DNA of 60,568 bases, filler included, from Globobulimina sp. (taxonomy: Eukaryota), in NCBI GenBank assembly GCA_003354225.1. It is 17 parts of 17 records of this genome, joined end to end, with 100 filler letters (N's around TTAATTAATTAA, not from the genome) between each part and the next. Parts side by side here need not be neighbours in the genome. Positions count along the whole stretch, not along the records: positions 57,104 to 60,568 come from PIVH01002729.1; 16 more parts are not named here. One strand, 5' to 3'. The notes under the pieces are model-generated. The model was not told where the DNA came from. It did not search any database and worked only from the letters and a program-made list of their open reading frames with translations. Position numbers and translations under genes: made by a program. How positions within the stretch are numbered: position 1 is the first letter of the stretch; each line of letters begins with the position of its first letter. Shown here in pieces: positions 8,147-60,568 of the stretch.

Positions 8147-8857
8147 CTAATATTTGACCAAATGCTTGATTTTGTCATATCGATTTGGTGTGGGGTATGA
8201 AATATAGATTGGATAATTAGAATCCAATAATCGATGATGTGCCCTATGATGATTGCTAATATTCTCGTCATGTGTGGCGGCATACCATGTTTGCTGAATA
8301 GTGCCAATTACCATAAATGTAAACACATCGCCAGATATGAAATACCATAAGAAATTAAGCGTTGCGGGACCAAAAAACTCAATCAATAAATCCAAAGGAT
8401 GGAAAAATACATTTGTTGATAGCGATGTGTAAATACAACAATGATGTAACAAATGAATGCGACTGCCATACTTTGTCACATGTAATATTTTATGCGCAAC
8501 ATAGAATAAATAGTCTCCGCATAACACAACAACAATCACAGGCAATATCAATGCTAAATCAATATGAAGTTCCAATGGCTCCTCAGCTAACATTACCTTA
8601 TATGTGTATATTCCAACAGCATTATAATAAATACTATTCACCACAACACATGTCCAGATTTCAGTGGATGATAAACCGCTCGATTTCATAATTTCGAGAT
8701 TCTTCCAGGGCCTGTCTGAGATAACGAAGTCTGTCCATGTTATAATCTGTCCAATTGGAAGGAACAGCCACCAATAATCCCAAGCATACAATAAATACGG
8801 TGTTATTAGTGACACTGTCAACGCAATTATTGTATACGACCACTTTACAAAAGACAT
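8147..8857 (-). CDS. Fatty acid hydroxylase / sterol desaturase superfamily protein
   Basis: His boxes DYLFYVAHKILH, HLLHH, HPLD and HHRAHH, with TM segments. Confidence 0.88.
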   Translation of the reverse strand: MSFVKWSYTIIALTVSLITPYLLYAWDYWWLFLPIGQIITWTDFVISDRPWKNLEIMKSSGLSSTEIWTCVVVNSIYYNAVGIYTYKVMLAEEPLELHIDLALILPVIVVVLCGDYLFYVAHKILHVTKYGSRIHLLHHCCIYTSLSTNVFFHPLDLLIEFFGPATLNFLWYFISGDVFTFMVIGTIQQTWYAATHDENISNHHRAHHRLLDSNYPIYISYPTPNRYDKIKHLVKY

Positions 8858-8860
8858 GAT

Positions 8861-10219
8861 GTGTGCTACCTGATGGCTAAGAGTACTTACAGTAAAACTT
8901 TGTCAACAATGATGACGAAATCAAGAGTGCATGCAATGTTTTTACGATTGTTTGCATCGCCAATCATGCAAACACTGTACAGAACAGATCGGTATTCCAA
9001 TGAATTGATTGACCTGAACAATATGCAAAACAATGAACTGCAACAATCATTAATATTCATTGAAAAGTTAATACAGAACAAAGCCATTGAAACATACAAA
9101 GCATTATCAACCTATTACGACATTGAAAACGCATCATTGTTGCATAAAGATTTAATAATTGAGATCTTAGAATGGTCGTATGATACAGATAAATATTTAG
9201 GTAACGAACTATTAGATACGAAGCATTTTTCTGCGCCAATTTTTGATGTATTGTCACATGCATTTATTTCATTTGTGATCGAGCCAATCCATATTATAAA
9301 TGTATGGATATTGATCATATTGTACGTGCTTCCGCGTTTTCTGTCGCTATGTCTCTTAATAATCGACAAAAAACATAGAAACTATGCAAATAATTGGGAT
9401 TGTTCCGTTTATGATTATATTGTTGCTGAAACCATGCAAATACAATATTTTCTCACATTGATACATTTATTGTTGTGTCAAACTATATTCTTCATCAATG
9501 CATTGATGCCGTTACGTTCTTTTGTGCGATGGCGAAGATATTATATAATATATTTGAATCATTATGAGAGTGATGTGTACAATGACAATAGTTTTGAATT
9601 GGATGATTATGAAGCAATGAAATTGCTGCTTTTTCCATATCAGAAATTAACACTACATGGCAAGATTAGTAACATTAATATCTGTGATATTAACATGGAT
9701 GATAATGTTAATGGGTTTACATGGACAGAGTTTGCAGTGTCATATACTTTGTATGTATTTAATTTATACATTTATCATATTTGGTCAGTTATGTACAACG
9801 AAAACAGTTTATTAATGCGTAAGATATCTTATTATGAATGTGTGGTTTTTATAATATATATATTGCCGTTAATATTTGTTCTATTTATATTGGATAATAC
9901 ATATATTAAAATTAAACAAAGAATGGATATGTTAAAATTGACTGTTTTAGTTATAGGCGCATGCGCCGCTGGGATCATATTAGCATGTTTTCGGATCTTT
10001 GGATATGTTTATATTTATATGTTGTTTGACTTTGTATCATATTTATTTAATTTTATTCACATTATGTCATGTACAGTCATTGGATATATCTCTGTTGAGT
10101 GGACCATCCGACACGTTTACACATCTATATTTTTTTTAAAGTCATCAATCAAACAGAATATGTTAATTTTATCAAATACCGTTGCTATAACTATCTGGAT
10201 ACTGTTTACCAAGGGATAA
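8861..10219 (+). CDS. Hypothetical multi-pass membrane protein (start uncertain)
   Basis: 452-aa ORF with many hydrophobic helices; no family recognised. Confidence 0.55.
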   Translation: MCYLMAKSTYSKTLSTMMTKSRVHAMFLRLFASPIMQTLYRTDRYSNELIDLNNMQNNELQQSLIFIEKLIQNKAIETYKALSTYYDIENASLLHKDLIIEILEWSYDTDKYLGNELLDTKHFSAPIFDVLSHAFISFVIEPIHIINVWILIILYVLPRFLSLCLLIIDKKHRNYANNWDCSVYDYIVAETMQIQYFLTLIHLLLCQTIFFINALMPLRSFVRWRRYYIIYLNHYESDVYNDNSFELDDYEAMKLLLFPYQKLTLHGKISNINICDINMDDNVNGFTWTEFAVSYTLYVFNLYIYHIWSVMYNENSLLMRKISYYECVVFIIYILPLIFVLFILDNTYIKIKQRMDMLKLTVLVIGACAAGIILACFRIFGYVYIYMLFDFVSYLFNFIHIMSCTVIGYISVEWTIRHVYTSIFFLKSSIKQNMLILSNTVAITIWILFTKG

Positions 10220-15587: not shown

Positions 15588-16626
15588 TTATTTATGTGTA
15601 TGTTTGTATTTATTTCTTGGTCTTCCTTCATTATAATAAACTTTTAAATACTTAGATATTTCACATAAACAATTCTCCATTGCCATTAAATTCAAACATT
15701 TTTCTTTCCTGTCCTCAAATAAAATTTCCACATTACATTGATTATCTGTAAAACCTTTTTTTTGTATTTTACAAAGATATTGGATGCATTGATTATAATT
15801 TAAATGTTTTTTATCTTTAAAAAGTCTGTTAATCCCATTAATAGCACCTGGTCCAGCAATGACATATTTACATTCATTAAATATATCTTTATTCCAATAG
15901 CCTAAATCTACGGAGATTTGATATGCCATAAAAGGACCAATTCCTCGCAATTTTAATAATGATTTATAAGTAAAATCTGAACTTTTATTGTTTAAAATAT
16001 CTTTACAAAACTTTGGAATCATTTTTAATGTTTTTTTGAATAAAATGCATGTTCTTCCAATCTTATCACGTTTAATTTTCTTATTCTTATCAATAAAACC
16101 ATAGCTTGGTACAATAAATGCATTCGTAAAAACTTTTTCATTTTTTTTTACTAAATCTCGCAAATTTGTTTCTAATTTTTTTGTATCAAATGCCTGAATT
16201 GTTTGAAAGCCAATTTTATTGAATGTATTTATTTTATTATAAATCCTATAAATAAATATATTAAAAAATAAATTTTCGAAATCGTTTTCAAATTTGGGAA
16301 TAATTTTATTTATAACATATTGTGTTCCTGGATCAATATCTCTGAATACATTGGTAAATCTCCATTGTGACAATATTTTGTCATTCGTCCATGGTGCTAA
16401 CTCATTTTTGCTTCTTTTCTTATAAATGTTATGTCGCTCAATAATATACTGCCAAAATAAATTAATATTTTCTTCATGAAGAATTATTTTTGTGTTATCC
16501 TCAGATAATTTTTGTTTTTTTCTTGCTGGCTCCGGTATATCAGCCTTGTGGATGGATACAGTGAAAAAGAGGTTTAATGAGCAACATGGTACATACATTC
16601 TCTGGCATTTGTTTTCTTCTTGGCAT
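15588..16626 (-). CDS. Homologue of phage DNA thymine-hypermodification enzymes (aGPT-PPlase / 5-hmdU-kinase-associated helical family), one intron
   Basis: ERHNIY..PWTNDKILSQWRFTNVFRDID, YRIYNK, FTNAF, HhH-like LRGIGPFMAYQI..DL, GPGA..G and ENCLCEISKY. Intron 16596..16545 joins MPRRKQMPEN to ADIPEPARKKQK. Confidence 0.8.
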
Positions 16627-16710
16627 CGATGTCTTGCGTCACGACGGAATGTTTAAAAAAAAAACCTAGTTTAATAAAATAATAAGTCATAATAAATAAT
16701 GCAAGACAAG

Positions 16711-17758
16711 TCATTTTTTTGTTTTTTTTTGCCAAACTAAACCTTTCATGTTTTGATCCGTGGAATCATCAATTTCGATATCATGATCATTTCCTTTGGT
16801 ATCACCTGTTACCAATGATTGTAATTCCTTTGTTATGGTTTGCTTTGCATAGTGATATGATCCACAAACTGACTGTTGAATATGCCATTGTTTATATCCC
16901 AATGCTTGTAGATTCCAACAATTATTATTTTTGAATATTCTACACATTACAACTGATCTTGATTTGCCTGCTTCGTCAATTTCATATCGAATTAAATTAA
17001 TATCAGCCGCGGTTTCTTCATATAATAAAATAGTCGGTTCCTTAAATTCTGACAAATCACTTGGTCCGCAAGCACATAATGTAAAAAATAATTGTTTAAT
17101 ATTTTTGTCTTCCATTAATTTGGATAAATTTAACCTAATTTTATGTACTGATTTACCATTAACTTTAGTATCACCACTATGTGATATGTTGTTGTACCGT
17201 CTGGCACCATAATGTACCACTTGTATGCAGTTATCATCATTATCATAAATCAAACACGCACCGCATAAAATATGTGACGAATCAGAGTCTAATTGCAAAA
17301 TAAAATTATTTATAATGTTTGGTTTGCACAATTTATCTTTTTTAAACATTAAATCTGTTGTTGGCACACCTAAAATGTCTGCAATTTCATGGTTTAATTG
17401 TTTACGTTTTGAATGAAGGATATTTGCTTCATTTTCATCCGTAAACACAATCTGATACTCAATTAATTGAGTCTCTTGATCTGTAAACGTAACATTTGAT
17501 ATTTCAACTTTATTATTTGCACCGTATACTTTTTGTACACATTGTATAAATTGATAAACATCAAATTTTGTGCTCATTTCGCATTTTATAATCATTTTAT
17601 ATTTAGGAATTGCAATTATTTGTTTTGATGTTAGCTTAATACCGGTTTTACCATTGGCATTATTATTATTTGTGTTACTATCAAGGAGCGGCTGATACAT
17701 TTTCAATACAGAATCTCTTGAACAGCCACGTAGATAATCATAGATTATTTGTGCTATG
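16711..17758 (-). CDS. TerD-domain protein, 5'-truncated
   Basis: ACLIYD..VHYG..ISHSGD..HKIRLNLSKL..LFFTL..SVVMCRIFK..WNLQALG matches the TerD pattern. Frame is open to the contig edge. Confidence 0.7.
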
Positions 17759-17978
17759 NNNNNNNNNNNNNNNNNNNNNNNNNNNNNNNNNNNNNNNNNN
17801 NNTTAATTAATTAANNNNNNNNNNNNNNNNNNNNNNNNNNNNNNNNNNNNNNNNNNNNTCACCCTATGAACAAGAATAATGATGAATGTGAGCAAATCTG
17901 CATTATTATTTGTATTAATTAGCATTTAATAGGTTATCGATTGCTTATGACATATCATATCATGACAACATAAAATAT

Positions 17979-34074: not shown

Positions 34075-34486
34075 AATTGCCCATTCGCCACATTTGTGGC
34101 GGTTGGAAGTTGTCCATAAAAGTCCGTAATTTGTGTGTTATTTGTGTTACGTTTTTGTCTCTACAAAGTATATCACGCTAATTTAACAGATTTGTTGTGG
34201 TATAAATAAGCAAATATAATATTGATTCCTTAAAATAACTTACTTTGAGTGACCTTAGTATTAGTTTTAAAGTAACTTTTTTTTCCTTTTTTTGTTTGAC
34301 GTTGCGGTATTTATTTTATTGTAATATCGAGCATAGTATATTTTACACGTTTACTTTTTGTTTTGTGTGTTAAACTATACTTAAATATAGTATATTAAAC
34401 GTATATTTTACATTTTTGTTTGTTTACTTTTTGAAGTGGTTAAGCAGTCTTTAATTTAATTTTTCATATATATTTAATATATATAT

Positions 34487-35604
34487 ATGCCGAGAAATAA
34501 GCCAGTTCCGTTAAAAAGAGGTACAAAGGAATGGTACATTAGGTATCCTTTCGCGGCAAAAGCAAAATATAATCGATTAAAACGAAAAATTGATAATAAA
34601 AATAAAAAAAAGCGGTATAGTAAAACGACTGTGCAGTCGGTAAAACAGTCTATAATTAATCCGTTAACATGTAAATCGAATAAAATTAAGATTATAATAT
34701 GGAATGTTGATGGGGGAATGAATGCGAATTCAATTAAAAACGCCGATGTTATTACGTATATTGAAGATAAGCAGCCCCATATTTGTATGTTTCAAGAAAC
34801 AGTCGGATTTAAGAATTATAGGGGTTATAAAATTGCGAATGATGGTGAATTTGCACAAATTAATGGAATGAAGCGCATTGCGAATGATATTATTGGTGTA
34901 ACGTCGATTTATGTGTGCGATAATATGGTAAATAGCACCAGTTCTATAGATATCCCATATGATTTAATTGATGCAGTGCCAAAAAATAATATTCATTCAT
35001 GTGCGGTTGTAGTTAAATTAAAAAAAAAGTACAGAAACAGGGATAAAATCGTATTATGGAATGGTTATAGGTCACCAAATAACGATGCAATCAACTTGGT
35101 AAACATCAAAATAATCCATAGATTTATTGCGAATTATATGAATGATGCAACACCGACAATTATTAATAGTGGTGACTATAATATCCGTTCTGAATTCTTA
35201 GGGTCGATTGATAGAAATGATGAGAAACGCTATAATTTATTAAAAAAATATGATGACGGAGATAATTTATTTAATGTAATGAGCAATATCGGCCTGAAAA
35301 ACATGAACGTATATGGACAGAAAACGAGATTTATGAAGAACAAATACGACGTTGTGGAAGAATCAATTATTGATACAATTTGGCCAAATATCAACAAAAA
35401 ACGTCGTACAAAATTAATTAATACTTATATCCCCGAAACTATATCTGATCACTATCCAAATCACTTATATCTAATTAATGTAAATGCTATTAAACAAAAG
35501 AAACGTTTTACGAAAACAGTGTGGGATTTGGAAAAAATGTCGGCCCAAAACATAGAAAAATACCAAAATGATTTAGATATTAAGTTCAAATCAATGAAAA
35601 TGGT
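34487..35604 (+). mobile_element. LINE-like ORF2, APE/EEP endonuclease domain, truncated before RT
   Basis: IIIWNVDG, PHICMFQET, NGYRSP, SGDYN, SIIDTIW and ISDHYP in canonical order, followed by WDL..., as in non-LTR ORF2. Confidence 0.8.
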
Positions 35605-36008
35605 NNNNNNNNNNNNNNNNNNNNNNNNNNNNNNNNNNNNNNNNNNNNTTAATTAATTAANNNNNNNNNNNNNNNNNNNNNNNNNNNNNNNNNNNNNNNN
35701 NNNNTGTCTTGTTTCCTTTGATTGGATGTATTGTTGTAATGATGCCCTTTCTGGATATACTGGATTATTTAAAGGGTAAATAAAAGATTTTATGTTGTAT
35801 AATGCTTGAAATTGTTCAATTTCATCCATGCAAAAATTAGTATTATGCTAACCAGTTAACGTCACACATTTAATAATACAAACGTCACGCATTTAATCTT
35901 CATACAAAGCAGTTTTCGAAAAAAAAAACAATTTTAATAAAAAACACCAAAAACAATTAAACTCATTTTAATAAAGGTGAATACGCAAAACTAGAAATAA
36001 TATCTGCA

Positions 36009-47473: not shown

Positions 47474-49138
47474 TTATGTTTTTGACATAGTAATTAATCG
47501 ATTTGTCATTAACAACTCAGAATACCAAACATCAGTATCCTCATTTTGTTGCTCTTCTGTAACAAAATCAAATTTTTTAACAATGCAACGAATATGCCGT
47601 GGCGGTTGAATTGGAAATGGATTATATTTCATTAATCTCAAAATGCTTGGATTGTTTTCCTGTAATAACTGTATAACTTTCTTAAACCATTCCGGTGGTC
47701 GGTAATAATTACAATTATAATCCAAATATCTTTTCCAATATAAGGGTAAAAACCATATTCTCCAATCCAATCTCGGTACGTGCAAGATAACCAACTGTGG
47801 CTTATCTGTAATTAACGATGGCTTATACACAAAATGATATGTTTTCCATTCAACCAAATCATCACTGCCTTCAACAATAAACTCATATCTTTCCGTGTTC
47901 ATACTGCCGAATTTTGCGTATTTATTTCCGAACTTATACCTCCGCAATTTTCTGCTGACACGCGTGATATCGTCAGTTACCGGCAGCGGATATTGAGAAG
48001 TTTCAGTCAATGGCTGCCATGAACCGACCACGTACAAACAAATCATAACACAGGATATTGGAATGGTTATCCATTCATAGAAAAACCAATGTGTGCCACC
48101 ATTTAAATATTGCTGTTTGATATTATGAGCAACATTGAGCAGAAACTGTGGCAACACACTGTCGTCCAACAGCGACATGGTTTCAGTCATCATCAACTGA
48201 CCAATATAGCCGAAATTGCCAGACATATTAATTACTAATATCAGCCATTGGAATCCAATGAAAGCGACATAGCGAGACCAGGATGGACCAAACACGCCAA
48301 AACATAGCGGTCCTTCAATAAATAAAGTGCCAAACACAGAGAGTTTATGTTGGTAAATGGGTAAATGATGGAAAAAGAAAGAGAATATATTTGGCAGTGG
48401 CTGGGTGATATAATGTCGATTCATTGCTGTCAATTGTTTCCAGGATGCCGCGCCAAACCATTTACACATTCCGCAGCCAAGCATTATGCGAAAGGCTAAC
48501 CATCGATATACGAATATGGCAATAAATGGATATCGGAAATGCGTAAAACTGCAGCAGAACATTAACAGATTTAACTCTACCATTTCAGAATCATTTTGTA
48601 GCATTAAAAAATCACCGGAAACACCAATATATGAGTTGTATAAAATAGCATTGGTCATATAGCAGGTTGCTAATATAAATATGGAGTATGAATAAAAAGG
48701 TAATAAACACATGACAAAGCCTGAAAGAATGCCAATAATACCTACGATTCGAATAAATGTTGGGGAGGAAGATAACCAAAATATTGAAGGTTTGAGCATG
48801 AATTTAGAGAAAAAAGAAGCATTTTCATCAATGTTATAACGTAATGGCCATTGGCTAATCAGTGTATGTGCTGGACAGACACCGTCGGGTAATATTAATC
48901 CGAGCTGAACATACCATGATGTAAACGATACAATATTTAATAATCCAATCATGAATTCAATCAACATTAACGTTGCATCGCATGGTTCGAATAAATCATT
49001 AATTGACAATGACACAAAGTAACTTAATACATTATCCGTAAGCAATATGTACAAAAATACAATGATAGGGACATTGAGGGATGGATACTCCGCCAACAAA
49101 TCACGTAATATCATCTGTGGCTCTTTGAACAATGACAT
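47474..49138 (-). CDS. Lipase maturation factor family protein
   Basis: RWLAFRIMLGCG..K, W..LTAM..HY.TQPLPN, SGNFG, RYEFIVEGSDD..W..Y.F.YKP and PRLDW..WF. Confidence 0.92.
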   Translation of the reverse strand: MSLFKEPQMILRDLLAEYPSLNVPIIVFLYILLTDNVLSYFVSLSINDLFEPCDATLMLIEFMIGLLNIVSFTSWYVQLGLILPDGVCPAHTLISQWPLRYNIDENASFFSKFMLKPSIFWLSSSPTFIRIVGIIGILSGFVMCLLPFYSYSIFILATCYMTNAILYNSYIGVSGDFLMLQNDSEMVELNLLMFCCSFTHFRYPFIAIFVYRWLAFRIMLGCGMCKWFGAASWKQLTAMNRHYITQPLPNIFSFFFHHLPIYQHKLSVFGTLFIEGPLCFGVFGPSWSRYVAFIGFQWLILVINMSGNFGYIGQLMMTETMSLLDDSVLPQFLLNVAHNIKQQYLNGGTHWFFYEWITIPISCVMICLYVVGSWQPLTETSQYPLPVTDDITRVSRKLRRYKFGNKYAKFGSMNTERYEFIVEGSDDLVEWKTYHFVYKPSLITDKPQLVILHVPRLDWRIWFLPLYWKRYLDYNCNYYRPPEWFKKVIQLLQENNPSILRLMKYNPFPIQPPRHIRCIVKKFDFVTEEQQNEDTDVWYSELLMTNRLITMSKT

Positions 49139-49242
49139 GATAAGTTTGAAGTGTCTGAAAAACCGTTTACAACTGAACTGATGGCGTGACAATAAAGCCA
49201 AGGCGATGCAAATTCAAAACATGTTAAAAGAAAAGAAAAATG

Positions 49243-50205: not shown

Positions 50206-52130
50206 TCATGCAAATTCAATTAACTCCTCATCACTTTCACCACTAGTACTTGAATATACATTTTTTTTATTTTTCTTTCCGCCACAATACATACAACATA
50301 CAAAACACGCAACAGCCACAACAACCATCACCGCAAATATTGCATTCAATACCTGTACCATACTTCCATTCGCTTCAAATTTTAATGTCTCCCTAATTCC
50401 CTCCACCACCGTCAATAACCTTCTGTTTCCAGGTAAATTATGCAATTTAGTACAAGAACCTTTATGGCAAAAACAGCTTTTCTTACAACATTCCTCATCA
50501 TTACTACAGCGAAAACCAGGTTTTATACAACAGCCCATATCGCCATCACCCGTACTGCCTTTGTATTTGCTCGAACATGCAACTCCAAAATGTGCCGGAT
50601 TCACACCACCAACGCAACAATCTTCTGTGTCGTCACATTCTTCACCGATAAAACATTTACCATCATCACTATCGTCACTATCACCATCATCACTATATTT
50701 GCGATGTTTAATTTGTTTGCCAGCTGGATATTCTCCCATAGCATTGCCGCCTGTATCAACCCCATTGCATGATTTATCATTATCTTCCACTGTATATAGT
50801 GTAACCATTCCAGCAGCAATATGGTCAAACACATGGCAATGATACAGCCAAACCCCTGGCATATCAACAGTCATTGTCACAGTATATGTGGTACCAGCTA
50901 TCAACACCAACGTATCGGTGTTATCACCTAATGAATCTACTGCGATACTTCCATGCCTATATATATACAAACAGAGAAGTTTGCAAATTATATGCACACA
51001 TAAACGTTGCTAATGTTGCAATTATACTGTATACGATTTAGCTTTGCAACATGCTTCAAATACAAACAGAAACACCTAACCAGTGAGGACTGTGTGGACC
51101 GTCCACCTCATTTCCAAGAGAACACGTATACCATCTCACACTTTCACATTTCTCCATCGATAAAGTATCTAAATTGCCGAATAAATATCCATTGATTGCG
51201 TGCATTTTATTCGATTCAATGAAACCTTCATCTTCAAGCAAGTCCGCATCATCACCGTCAGATATCATTGCTAAATTATCCTCAAACAACATCGACCGAC
51301 TTTCTTCATATAATACCATAAAAGTTGTAAACTCTCTGTCGACATCCTTTGGCATTAAATTAGTTTTACTGGTTTCCATCCCTTTTTTTGTTACAATAAT
51401 CGCGCCAAATAAGCCGGTATAAATATCCTTGATGGCATTAACGTGGCTGTGATATAGCCACATTTTCGAACTTAAATTCTCATCGACCATATTGTTTCTG
51501 GCATACCAAATATAAATCCATTTCCCTCCATCCTCTGCAACAACATCACCGCCTGTCACTCCGTCATCGTCTAAATATGGAGCGCCTTCACTTAATTTAT
51601 CATACGCTACGCCATGGCCATGTAATGAGGTTGGGAAAGAGCACATATTTTTGTAATATATTTTAATTTTCTCACCAGTTAAGGCTCGGAAGTTCGGTCC
51701 TAATGAACCTAAATGTTCATCTGCTTCGCTCCGTTTCTGGGTTTTGAAACAAGCATTTGTATATTCGCGATATAGCGCTTTCCAATATGTGGCACCAATT
51801 CTGTCTACGCCATTGCCCCATAGCCACGTCGCTTCATGTGAGGTGTTGGTGACATTCTTACCTGCGATCAAATGGTATTCAGATGTACAAATATGGTGTT
51901 TTTACTTATTACGTACAAATATGGAGTGTGTATATTGTTACTCACGGACCTGAATATACATTCTTTGCATATGGCGCGTAATTCCATTGTACTTCAACAC
52001 ATGCTACGTAATATACACGCTCTGCATATACATCGTAGTTAACATTGCTTTTGAACTTGTAATCGCAGTTTGCACTTGCATATAATGCGGTGATTTGATA
52101 CAATGAGAGCAACAGTAAAGTTAACGCCAT
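50206..52130 (-). CDS. Two-domain ceruloplasmin/hephaestin-like multicopper oxidase with Cys-rich region and C-terminal TM, two introns
   Basis: Signal peptide; RVYYVACVEVQWNYAP, LHGHG, WLYHSHV, HSPHW|HG and WLYHCHVFDHIAAGM. Introns 51949..51862 and 51080..50957. Confidence 0.92.
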
Positions 52131-57003: not shown

Positions 57004-57103
57004 NNNNNNNNNNNNNNNNNNNNNNNNNNNNNNNNNNNNNNNNNNNNTTAATTAATTAANNNNNNNNNNNNNNNNNNNNNNNNNNNNNNNNNNNNNNNNN
57101 NNN

Positions 57104-57597
57104 ATGGTGCAGTTAATTTGATAGAAACAATCAGAAAAGATGTTGAACACAATAATGATAAGAATGTAACTAAAAAAAGGAAAGACAGTTTGTTGATATT
57201 GCTGAAAGATTTGAATCAGAAAGAAATGAATAGTTTAGATTCAGAATGGTGTGATGTGTCAAATGAAAGTAATGCAAACGCAATCATATCATTTATCGCG
57301 GTGGAATATAATAAGAAGGCCATAGATGAAATACCGAGTTGTATTGAAGCTTTGATTGGGCGATTTTATTTGGTAAAATGTGATTTTGTTGTCCCATATT
57401 TGAAAATGCAGTTAGATTTTGATGGGATGGTTATTGTGAATAAAAAGAAGATCTGTGCTTTCTGTCAAAATATCCAAATTAATATGCAAAGATGCAGTGG
57501 GTGTAAATATGTATTTTACTGCAACCGATTGTGTCAACAAAAAGACTGGAAACCAACTCATAAAACCATATGTGCTACAATCAAAAAAGTGATTTAA
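57104..57597 (+). CDS. MYND zinc-finger protein, 5'-truncated
   Basis: CAFC...RCSGCKYVFYCNRLCQQKDWKPTHKTIC. Confidence 0.9.
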
Positions 57598-57992: not shown

Positions 57993-60392
57993 ATGGCCGA
58001 CGTAGCACCAAAAGAAGGCGAATGGATTTTGCGTCCAGCAAAGACGAACTGGATCGCGACATTGTCGAACAAGAATTACTGGGCCTTTTATTTCCTAGTG
58101 ATTGTGGCAATTTGTGTGGGCGGAATTGGTTATTTTGGGGAAGTGGCGCATTATGAGGTGCCGCCATTGTGCGATTTCGTGGGTCCTGATGGCAGCGTGG
58201 TGATATCGGCCAAGAGCATCAATCACGGCGAGGAGGTGTTCCATTTGCGAGGTTTGATGGCTTATGGCTCCTTCTTAGGGGATGGCAGTGAGCGTGGCCC
58301 CGATTATACGGCCGAGGCGTTGCACGAATTAGCAATTGGAATGACCAAACATTACGAATCCAAATTGAAGCACAAGACGCAGCACGATGTGGAAGCCCTG
58401 AAACCCAGAGTCCGCATGGAACTCCGCAACAACGCGTACGATTTGGAGAAGGATGTGATTGTCTTGAATTCGGCGCAAATCTCTGCGTGGAAGAGGATCA
58501 AAACTTATTATCGGCGAATCTTTGCGGGTGCGGACCAAGGAACGTCCACTTTGACGCCAAATATGTTCATAACGAACCCGACGGACATCGCAGATTTGGC
58601 CGGCTTCTTTTTTTGGGGCGCCTGGATGTCTGCGGCGGCGCGACCCGGCGAAGATTACAGTTATACTCATAATTGGCCGCATGAGCCGTTGGCGGGAAAC
58701 ATCCCAACGCCGGCCGTGATTTTGTGGTCGGCCATCTCAGTGTTGATATTATGGTTTGGTTTGGCGGCCACCCTATTTATTTACGGACAGTTGGACCACG
58801 AAAACGAGGACGAAGAGGACATTAAGACGAAAGGACAGCCGTTGACGACCCAGGATTTGGAGACTGGCGTTGTCCGCGAAACGCAGGTGGACTGTTACAA
58901 GTTCTTCGTATTATCGATGCTGGCCTTCGCCATTCAAGTGATAGCCGGGGTTTGCTGCGCCATCGACTTCGTGCGACCGCTCGGCTTCTCGGCCTGTTAC
59001 ATATTGGGTTACAACGTCTTGCGTTCCTATCACGCCACTTTCCAGATCTTCTGGTTCTTTGTGGCTTGGGTTGGAACCACCATTTGGTTTTTGCCGCGTT
59101 TCCAGCGACGAGTGCCCATTGGACAGAAATTTTTGATTAATTTGTTGTTTGGCGGTTGCTGTGTGGTGGCACTTGGCGGCGCCATCGGTATTCCATTGGG
59201 ACAGACCGGGTACATTCAGGGCGAAATGGCGTATTATTTCGGATCGCAAGGCTGGGAATTTATGGAATTGGGCCGCATATTTCAGGATTTATTGTTGTGC
59301 GGCTTTGTGTTATGGATTTTGATCTTATTTCGCGGCGTCTATTCGTACATTACGTGGAACACCATCTGGTCGACTCCGGCCTGGGTGTTTTACGGCAGTT
59401 TGGTGATGGTTTGGTTTTTATTTTTCAGTTTGAAGGTGACGCCGAAAACGAATTTCATAGTGTCGGACTTCTGGCGGTGGATGGTGGTGCATATGTGGGT
59501 CGAGGTAACTTTTGAAGTGTTCACCACTGTGATTGTGGCCTTCTTGTACCGCGAAATGGGATTAGTGAGCAAAAAGGCAGCGGAGCGAGCCACGTATATC
59601 GCGGTGATGTTGTTCTTTTTGACTGCGACCATCGGTGTGGGGCATAATTTTTATTGGATTGCGAAGCCAACGGGAGTCATTGCGATGGGCAGCGCCTTCT
59701 CGACGACGCAGGTGATGCCTCTTATTTTGCTGACGATGGACGCCTGGAAATTCATCCAAATGCGCGAGAAAGCCGAGTTGGAGCAAGCGAAAGGAAATCA
59801 GAAGCATATTATGCGCGGAGTGTGGTTATTTATGTTGGGCGTCAACTTCTGGAATGTGTTTGGTGCCGGAATCTTGGGCTCGTTTATCAATTTACCCGTT
59901 GTCAATTATTACATGCACTCGACATATTTGACTGGCAATCATGCTCATGCCGCCATGTGGGGCGTAAAAGGAAACATTGCCATTGCCGGCGTCTTATTTT
60001 GTGTGCAACATACGGTGCAAGAGAAGTATTGGTCGCCTAAGATCGTGTCGGTGGCGTTCTGGTCGTTGAATGGTGGTATTGCGGCGCAGATGTTTTTGTC
60101 GATGTTCCCCGCGGGTTTGGTGCATATGTACACCGCCATGGCAGAGGGACTATGGGCAGCGCGTACGCACGATATGTATAATTCGACCATCTTCCAGAAT
60201 TTAGCGAAAGGTCGAGCCTTCGGAGGACATATCTTTTTATGGGGTGGCTTATTGCCGTTGGTTTATTTCGTGGTTTCCAGATATTTCTATCTCAAACCAG
60301 TCACGCCGAATATTGATAAGAATCGCAAATATGACTCATTTTGGTTGGATGCTGCGCATACTGCACCTTATTCCACTAAAAAACTCGTGTAA
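57993..60392 (+). CDS. nod: qNor-family heme-iron enzyme with nitric oxide dismutase (Nod) signature residues
   Basis: YGSFLGDG..RGPDYTAEALH, YSYTHNWP.EP..GN, GSQGWEFMELGR, WRWMVVHMWVEVTFEVF, GHNFYW, STTQVMPL, WNVFGAG and HAHAAMWG. 799 aa, complete. Confidence 0.9.
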   Translation: MADVAPKEGEWILRPAKTNWIATLSNKNYWAFYFLVIVAICVGGIGYFGEVAHYEVPPLCDFVGPDGSVVISAKSINHGEEVFHLRGLMAYGSFLGDGSERGPDYTAEALHELAIGMTKHYESKLKHKTQHDVEALKPRVRMELRNNAYDLEKDVIVLNSAQISAWKRIKTYYRRIFAGADQGTSTLTPNMFITNPTDIADLAGFFFWGAWMSAAARPGEDYSYTHNWPHEPLAGNIPTPAVILWSAISVLILWFGLAATLFIYGQLDHENEDEEDIKTKGQPLTTQDLETGVVRETQVDCYKFFVLSMLAFAIQVIAGVCCAIDFVRPLGFSACYILGYNVLRSYHATFQIFWFFVAWVGTTIWFLPRFQRRVPIGQKFLINLLFGGCCVVALGGAIGIPLGQTGYIQGEMAYYFGSQGWEFMELGRIFQDLLLCGFVLWILILFRGVYSYITWNTIWSTPAWVFYGSLVMVWFLFFSLKVTPKTNFIVSDFWRWMVVHMWVEVTFEVFTTVIVAFLYREMGLVSKKAAERATYIAVMLFFLTATIGVGHNFYWIAKPTGVIAMGSAFSTTQVMPLILLTMDAWKFIQMREKAELEQAKGNQKHIMRGVWLFMLGVNFWNVFGAGILGSFINLPVVNYYMHSTYLTGNHAHAAMWGVKGNIAIAGVLFCVQHTVQEKYWSPKIVSVAFWSLNGGIAAQMFLSMFPAGLVHMYTAMAEGLWAARTHDMYNSTIFQNLAKGRAFGGHIFLWGGLLPLVYFVVSRYFYLKPVTPNIDKNRKYDSFWLDAAHTAPYSTKKLV

Positions 60393-60568
60393 ATTCTTAG
60401 TATTATTATTAGTATTAATATTAGAAAACAATGACATTTGAAGAATTATTTCCCGAATATTTGTCTGGCGATCTTTTATTGCTTTTTTGTTTTTTTGCTT
60501 TTTATATTCACTTTGTTACTTTTTTTTTCTTTTTTTTCTTTATTTCCAGATGTTTTGTTTTCCATTTT

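Follow-up and report, generated by a model that had tools for sequence, protein, structure and literature searches.

A KKXX-type end conserved in foraminiferal Nod-like proteins is a candidate signal for retrieval to the endoplasmic reticulum

The Nod-like gene and its C-terminal end

The stretch of DNA analyzed here (the window, 60,568 nucleotides, filler included) comes from the Globobulimina sp. assembly GCA_003354225.1 and consists of 17 parts joined end to end. Its last part, from position 57,104 onward, derives from PIVH01002729.1 and carries an open reading frame (ORF) for a protein resembling nitric oxide (NO) dismutase (Nod) and the quinol-dependent NO reductases (qNor). The protein ends in a KKXX dilysine motif, which in eukaryotic membrane proteins can direct retrieval to the endoplasmic reticulum (ER). 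The relevant features are:

57993..60392, plus strand: Nod-like ORF of the qNor-type haem-copper oxidases, intronless, 799 amino acids and a TAA stop
58083..58139, plus strand: first hydrophobic segment, residues 31-49, hydropathy 2.12, predicted signal-anchor with a cytosolic N-terminus
58140..58712, plus strand: hydrophilic cytochrome-c-like domain between segments 1 and 2, residues 50-240, predicted non-cytosolic (periplasm-equivalent, ER-lumen)
59643..59648, plus strand: His551-Asn552 in GVGHNFYW, with His-His (GIGHHYYY) at the same place in the solved structure 3ayf
60219..60275, plus strand: 14th and last hydrophobic segment by hydropathy, residues 743-761
60276..60389, plus strand: C-terminal hydrophilic tail, residues 762-799, 7 Lys/Arg and 3 Asp/Glu by charge count, predicted cytosolic
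60378..60392, plus strand: KKLV and TAA, a canonical KKXX dilysine motif at the free C-terminus (C-end ...YSTKKLV)

The window protein matched two Pfam families, PF22085 (NorB cytochrome-c-like domain, E 2.9e-44, residues 62-230) and PF00115 (COX1 core, E 2.1e-46), and an NCBIfam scan of the same protein gave no match. Its top solved relative was 3ayf, the quinol-dependent NO reductase of Geobacillus (E 2.2e-127, residues 38-773). A COX1-type core and an N-terminal NorB cytochrome-c-like domain are thus joined in one chain with 14 hydrophobic segments, the arrangement of the qNor/Nod branch. His551 and Asn552 were invariant in the alignment of 12 sequences of the clade described below (12/12); we take this His-Asn position to be the FeB ligand that defines Nod. 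The residues aligned with positions 328, 332 and 746 of 3ayf, which are presumably quinol-site residues, were Ile, Arg and Gly. The window protein thus combines the two Nod-type features, Asn for His at the FeB site and altered quinol-binding residues, at what we take to be the key positions. The best explanation is that the gene product is a Nod-like representative of the qNor branch within the haem-copper oxidases, and that the ORF was acquired from bacteria and now resides in a foraminifer-like nuclear genome. The text available of an earlier study reports loss of the quinol site and Nod-like substitutions in the catalytic site of foraminiferal Nor (Gomaa 2021, PMC8153729).

Codon 770 onward (60300-60392) specifies the last 30 residues, VTPNIDKNRKYDSFWLDAAHTAPYSTKKLV, followed by TAA at 60390-60392. 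Lys796 and Lys797 occupy positions -4 and -3 (60378-60383), and Leu, Val and the stop codon complete the KKXX end. The original prediction of such an end on a hydrophilic tail past the last transmembrane segment was borne out, exactly in coordinates and in sequence. Contigs of two sequencing runs crossed the stop codon with 0 differences from the window (X2 record 16, 60270-60511; X6 record 20, 60087-60399). The C-terminus is free, as judged from the TAA codon, the identical contigs and a tail that is homologous to the tails of relatives up to its end; this homology also argues that no 3′ intron is hidden there. When the residues of the window tail were shuffled 20000 times, a KKXX or KXKXX end arose in 1.7% of the trials.

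Many variant contigs were found at the 3′ end of the gene (59800-60568; runs X1, X2, X6 and X9), amounting to 1266 records for X1 and 925 for X9 with a likeness of 80-99%, which points to a multi-copy family. The variant copies diverge immediately past the Tyr793 codon (60371), and complete variants, translated by hand, still end in KKVN and a stop. A dilysine end was absent from two other ORFs of the window, each of which may be a single exon: FA_hydroxylase (8147-8902, minus strand; ...HLVKY) and LMF1 (47474-49213, minus strand; ...TMSKT).

Membrane topology was predicted from hydropathy, charge counts and homology to qNORs, for which 14 transmembrane helices are reported in the cited text (PMC6713497). 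Hydropathy gave 14 segments for the window protein, and with an even number both termini lie on one side. Loops of up to 60 amino acids carry 31 Lys and Arg on the N-terminal side (7 of them from the C-terminal tail) vs. 9 on the opposite side, which predicts that the N-terminus and the C-terminal tail are cytoplasmic and that the 190-amino acid hydrophilic domain lies on the far side. In the ER membrane, the hydrophilic domain is then predicted to be lumenal and the tail cytosolic, in keeping with the original prediction.

Thirty residues with 4 Lys/Arg precede the first segment, and the flank just past it begins EVAHYE. The N-terminus had been described as acidic and unlike a mitochondrial presequence. 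The first half of this description did not hold, because the first 30 residues have 4 Lys/Arg vs. 3 Asp/Glu and are not net acidic; the second half did, with acidic residues at positions 3, 8 and 10 and a single Arg. Across the clade, 7-54 residues precede the first transmembrane segment, with 0-2 Arg, and Asp or Glu is present in 8 of 9 members by a check of composition only. An Arg-rich N-terminal extension free of acidic residues, as expected of a presequence, was not found among the clade N-termini; internal targeting signals could still operate.

Relatives and conservation of the C-terminal end

We searched 5.8 billion proteins and obtained a list of 120 relatives. The closest nine share 57-73% identity, come from 2-5 kb contigs and all end in KKXX, KXKXX or KXHXX. 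The other 111 share ~50-55% identity, and many of them lie on long bacterial contigs or bear bacterial names; the motif was found in 0 of these 111 bacterial-type relatives. Further records were collected by a search for short records over residues 640-799 and by two cluster look-ups. After cluster members and two translated loci had been included, the window protein and its 12 relatives, 13 motif-bearing full or near-full rows in all, formed one clade with a support of 100 (FastTree, 129 rows, tail columns included). The clade was retained when the last 45 residues of each row were removed (IQ-TREE, 51 rows, SH-like approximate likelihood ratio test 100).

Members of the clade named in EukProt belong to Globobulimina turgida, Bolivina argentea and Nonionella stella. 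Among named proteins, fragments from G. turgida come closest, with 89-94% identity across the last 160 residues of the window protein. The named C-terminal ends are KKIA and KKVN in G. turgida and KKTN and KKKV in B. argentea; the N. stella fragments end ahead of the tail. Every foraminiferal sequence with a name belongs to the KKXX subclade that includes the window protein, and the KXHXX subclades come only from environmental records. Tandem repeats make up 9-76% of the flanks of the clade loci that were long enough to score (L001, L002, L003, L005, L007, L008 and L013), and the ORFs in these flanks amount to little beyond open frames inside repeats. The L001 flank, for example, holds (ATCC)n, (CTCCT)n, arrays of 42 bp and 21 bp, and (TC)68. 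Clade locus L009 has 0% tandem repeat. The other loci, all but one, have 0-10%, and most of them contain dense ORFs of up to 1142 amino acids. From the EukProt labels and the repeat-rich, gene-poor flanks, the motif-bearing clade is eukaryotic.

Two sister rows of the clade, P0017 and P0020, derive from ~2.4 kb contigs that barely exceed the gene and have Lys at -3 only (EIKQN and DEKEE). At loci L008 (1-3049) and L009 (1-3085) the Nod-like frame does not begin until about residue 99, in window-protein numbering, and is preceded by a Cys-rich ORF common to both. The broken 3′ end of another Nod-like copy lies upstream at L009. This layout suggests tandem units, an upstream exon or a fusion.

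We assigned 358 proteins by BLAST, and counted as clade those whose best hit to a clade representative beat the best bacterial hit by 5%. This yielded 101 clade proteins; after exclusion of 28 that end before the tail and of two N-terminal pieces (P0127 and P0135), 71 proteins with 38 distinct C-terminal ends were left. The motif was present in 60 of the 71 proteins and in 31 of the 38 distinct ends, counts that are not independent events because clade members share ancestry. Nineteen ends (32 proteins) were KKXX or KXKXX, 12 ends (28 proteins) were KXHXX, and 7 ends (11 proteins) were neither. Among clade loci fetched from metagenomes, all those with a complete end had the motif (9/9). The original prediction had called for a motif conserved in eukaryotic and absent from bacterial homologues, and this pattern was confirmed: named G. 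turgida and B. argentea proteins are among the motif-bearing ends, whereas the motif is absent from all 111 bacterial-type relatives and occurs in 1 of the 47 distinct ends at bacterial-type loci.

When 16 tails were aligned from the C-terminal end, position -3 was Lys (9 tails) or His (7), and Lys stood at -4 (7) or -5 (9); positions -1, -2 and -7 were variable. The tails extend 7-19 residues past an invariant S-x-W anchor, and shuffling of each tail's own residues gave the motif in 1-15% of the trials. Near-identical Globobulimina copies end in STKKLV, KTKKIA, QTLKKVN, TTLKKVN and QTNKKIN, so that KK keeps positions -4 and -3 despite the change in length. The Lys pair thus moves with the stop codon, and the free C-terminus is the sole fixed reference point. 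The motif is also kept in clade genes with 55-57% G+C (L001, L002, L007 and L008), and is therefore not a by-product of AT-rich DNA. Judged from these alignments, the end looks like the outcome of selection for a C-terminal signal.

Many bacterial-type relatives (P0009-P0121) have in common an acidic tail segment of the EGEWTVYEKDWA type. Acidic residues make up 0.26 of the last 25 positions in the bacterial-type tails vs. 0.17 in the clade, which has the S-x-W anchor and a basic end in place of the acidic segment. An internal LDA[AK]HTA in window-type tails (P0003 and the window protein) is similar to the DK[VL]H[AT]E with which tails in other subclades end (comparison with P0157, P0004 and the P0313 cluster), and the P0313 cluster holds both ...GKAHAE(stop) and ...GKAHDDSHAKQA(stop). 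It would seem that tails were lengthened beyond an older KXHXX end, and that KKXX was then regained at the new terminus in the window lineage. Reading beyond the stop codons of L001-L008 and L013 revealed no recognisable trace of the longer tail of the window protein.

Genomic setting and host origin

Two further features of the window bear on its setting:

57106..57597, plus strand: upstream ORF with a MYND zinc finger (PF01753, E 6e-12); runs of N at 57004-57048 and 57060-57103 break its 5′ side
50209-51901, minus strand: ceruloplasmin-like multicopper oxidase split over two ORFs (best solved match ceruloplasmin, E 1e-133)

The Nod-like ORF has a G+C content of ~0.50 vs. ~0.30 in its flanks, and AT-rich DNA lies on both sides with no N between. 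All other 2-kb bins of the window, including those with other coding ORFs, have 27-42% G+C. Codon bias in a highly used gene could account for the high G+C content of the ORF, as could a signature remaining from the donor. Elsewhere in the window we found ORFs with CAP-Gly, RING, C2H2, chromo, caspase and LMF1 domains, and an amino-acid permease split over two ORFs. The split permease and multicopper oxidase ORFs suggest introns. The multicopper oxidase ORFs were considered as NirK and rejected, being ceruloplasmin-like.

That the gene belongs to the host and not to a contaminant, as originally proposed, is supported by the eukaryotic ORFs of the window (zf-MYND, CAP-Gly, RING, chromo and LMF1). 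Bacterial contamination was rejected, since these domains mark a eukaryotic nuclear scaffold. A eukaryote-specific sorting signal that is kept in the clade and absent from bacterial relatives is independent sequence evidence of a long-domesticated host gene.

Two other observations concern the rest of the window. An ORF with a 5-hydroxymethyldeoxyuridine DNA kinase helical domain (PF18723, E 7.6e-66) adjoins one with a TerD domain (15591-16652 and 16714-17802, both minus strand), which is an unusual pairing for a eukaryotic scaffold. At 34478-35653 (plus strand), an endonuclease-reverse transcriptase domain (PF14529, E 1.5e-08) lies in an ORF that is probably a retroelement remnant.

Location of the enzyme and comparison with known systems

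The WD40 domains of the alpha- and beta'-COP subunits of the COPI coat bind a free carboxylate together with Lys at -3 and a second Lys at -4 or -5. A C-terminal KKXX mediates Golgi-to-ER retrieval, and Wbp1, an ER type I protein, has such a motif on its cytoplasmic side, as described in the cited text (PMC2120234). The weaker KXHXX form binds COPI via beta'-COP and must be at the C-terminus; the spikes of SARS-CoV-2 (KLHYT) and of porcine epidemic diarrhea virus (PEDV; KVHVQ) are examples, and a His-to-Lys change strengthens the binding, the PEDV KVHVQ binding much less well than KXKXX in the part of the study available (PMC8429659).

We think it probable that the KKXX end of the window protein is a working COPI retrieval signal that keeps the enzyme in the ER or early secretory pathway. 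The first hydrophobic segment would act as a signal-anchor, probably with a cytosolic N-terminus. The 190-amino acid hydrophilic domain would face the ER lumen, the equivalent of the periplasm, and after 14 membrane passes the tail of ~38 residues would return to the cytosol. There, the KKLV end could be recognised by the WD40 domains of alpha- and beta'-COP, and COPI vesicles would bring back any copies that had reached the Golgi, giving residence in the ER or early secretory pathway. The originally proposed retargeting of a bacterial-derived enzyme to the ER thus gains support from clade conservation and the predicted cytosolic tail, with ER residence itself as the step that we infer. A further link, to peroxisome-ER complexes and to a lack of need for quinol, is plausible but speculative.

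Several observations weigh against a COPI retrieval signal and residence in the ER, beside the shared ancestry behind the counts given above. Four G. turgida fragments end in ...APYQ or ...APYTT; they are most likely cut short of the motif, because these ends are prefixes of APYQTLKKVN and APYTTLKKVN in near-identical records. In another G. turgida fragment, P0312, ...QTLKKVN is followed by YSL, through either a replaced stop codon in this copy or an error in the record. Within one cluster at 90% identity, 6 of the 9 members end in ...AHDDS[HQ]AK[QK][AST] (AKQA, AKQS, AKQT or AKKA), with Lys at -3 only; the remaining 3 end in ...GKAHAE. The weaker KXHXX form accounts for 12 of the 31 motif-bearing ends (~40%). 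The motif also occurred at 2 of 69 bacterial-type loci, L037 and L038, which have one common tail, KKEQ, and thus count as 1 of 47 distinct ends; this is a chance match, and their sisters L025 and L026 end in KKEEQ, which does not fit the motif. No N-glycosylation sequon was common to at least 3 of 12 clade sequences, so none is conserved in the predicted lumenal parts. Finally, an ER location leaves the electron supply unexplained if the enzyme reduces NO to N2O.

It is very unlikely, in our judgment, that the motif reflects chance or composition, with Lys-rich tails arising from AT-rich DNA or the positive-inside rule and no selection. The window genome is indeed AT-rich, Lys makes up 0.16 of the last 25 residues in the clade vs. 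0.06 in bacterial tails, and one bacterial-type tail has the motif by chance. However, shuffles that preserve composition seldom yield the motif, as described above, and it is retained in genes of high G+C content and tracks the stop codon through length changes. A location in the mitochondrial inner membrane, with a matrix-facing tail and a motif irrelevant to sorting, appears improbable, if less so than chance. Woehle 2018 hypothesises, in the text available, that Nor is mitochondrial by analogy with bacterial and fungal homologues (PMC6783311); coupling to the respiratory chain is physiologically sensible, and proteins can be directed to the inner membrane by internal signals, with no presequence. 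Against such a location, the clade lacks a presequence-like N-terminus, as judged from the Arg and acidic residue counts given above, and the quinol site is reported lost (Gomaa 2021, PMC8153729). A preprint in which MitoFates, TargetP and PredSL were applied found 'little support' for mitochondrial foraminiferal Nor/Nod in the available part of its text (10.1101/2022.07.20.500910). In addition, a matrix-facing tail would be under no selection for a dibasic motif anchored at the C-terminus, yet the motif is kept.

The conserved basic end could instead be a selected signal with another reader of free C-termini, or the enzyme could reach its steady state later in the endomembrane system (cis-Golgi, nitrate-storage vacuole or contact sites), especially in the KXHXX subclades. 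We regard this as unlikely, but as a more serious alternative than a mitochondrial location. Position-specific conservation reveals selection and not which reader is involved, and the KXHXX signal of the coronavirus spike is leaky according to the cited text (PMC8429659). Moreover, 10 of 16 tails have Asp or Glu at -6, and Glu or Gln is frequent at the last position; neither feature belongs to the canonical COPI rule. On the other hand, the interchange of KKXX, KXKXX and KXHXX within one clade is the known degeneracy of COPI motifs, and the ends, compared by eye, fit neither the peroxisomal PTS1 pattern nor the PDZ-ligand classes. COPI-mediated retrieval to the ER or early secretory pathway remains our preferred reading.

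The conserved signal suggests that this step of eukaryotic denitrification is located in the ER, mitochondria having been the assumed site, and this contradicts the working model of where the process happens. The preprint cited above kept the denitrification proteins in its mitochondrial model and, in the text available, gave peroxisomal and mitochondrial predictions only (10.1101/2022.07.20.500910). Woehle 2018 argues for NO to N2O conversion from measured N2O, as far as the accessible text goes (PMC6783311). A word-stem search confined to the main texts of Woehle 2018, Gomaa 2021 and Woehle 2022 found no mention of ER targeting or of the C-terminal motif. Literature searches returned no paper joining foraminifera with KKXX or dilysine, and nothing relevant on foraminifera, nitric oxide reductase and endoplasmic reticulum. 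What is described here is a known sorting signal on a known foraminiferal gene, a combination undescribed in the papers searched.

The conserved signal gives a concrete alternative location for Nor/Nod. Only as a tentative and rather doubtful extension do we propose that the NO-consuming step of foraminiferal denitrification occurs in the ER membrane and not in mitochondria, and that the ER, if the enzyme is a true NO dismutase, makes O2 (and N2) under anoxia. Were this the case, O2 would arise beside enzymes that depend on it, both those of the ER itself and those of the peroxisomes found clustered with ER in chemocline foraminifera. The enzyme would also be the first relative of the respiratory-type haem-copper oxidases known to have been re-homed to the eukaryotic secretory pathway, and an ER location, if confirmed, would alter models of eukaryotic denitrification with respect to its electron supply, its product (N2O or N2 and O2) and its energetic role.

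These findings can be set beside four known systems: (i) bacterial qNOR and Nod-like proteins. The window protein shares with 3ayf and its kin the two Pfam domains, alignment over the full length, the 14 segments and the His ligands of haem and FeB, and differs from 3ayf by His-Asn instead of His-His in the active site. The bacterial relatives at ~50% identity likewise have HNFYW as their consensus active-site string, and one of them, P0067, is labelled nitric oxide dismutase by its source. In contrast with the clade, many bacterial tails have the acidic EGEWTVYEKDWA-type segment, and a dibasic C-terminal end was found in 0 of 111; (ii) the published foraminiferal Nor/Nod (Woehle 2018, Gomaa 2021 and Woehle 2022). 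These belong to the same gene family, with a Nod-like active site and a lost quinol site in the texts available, but they were placed in mitochondria by analogy, and the C-terminal motif and the ER go unmentioned in the main texts; (iii) dilysine ER proteins such as yeast Wbp1. Here, the Lys residues at -3 and -4 likewise stand at the extreme end of a predicted cytosolic tail, and KKXX and KXKXX interchange among the clade relatives. Unlike the type I Wbp1, the window protein is a 14-pass haem-copper oxidase of bacterial derivation with a predicted signal; and (iv) the coronavirus spike. Twelve distinct clade ends have the same K-x-H-x-x form (KVHAE, KVHAQ, KAHAE, KLHTE and others), whereas the spike is a single-pass viral glycoprotein in which the His makes the signal deliberately leaky.

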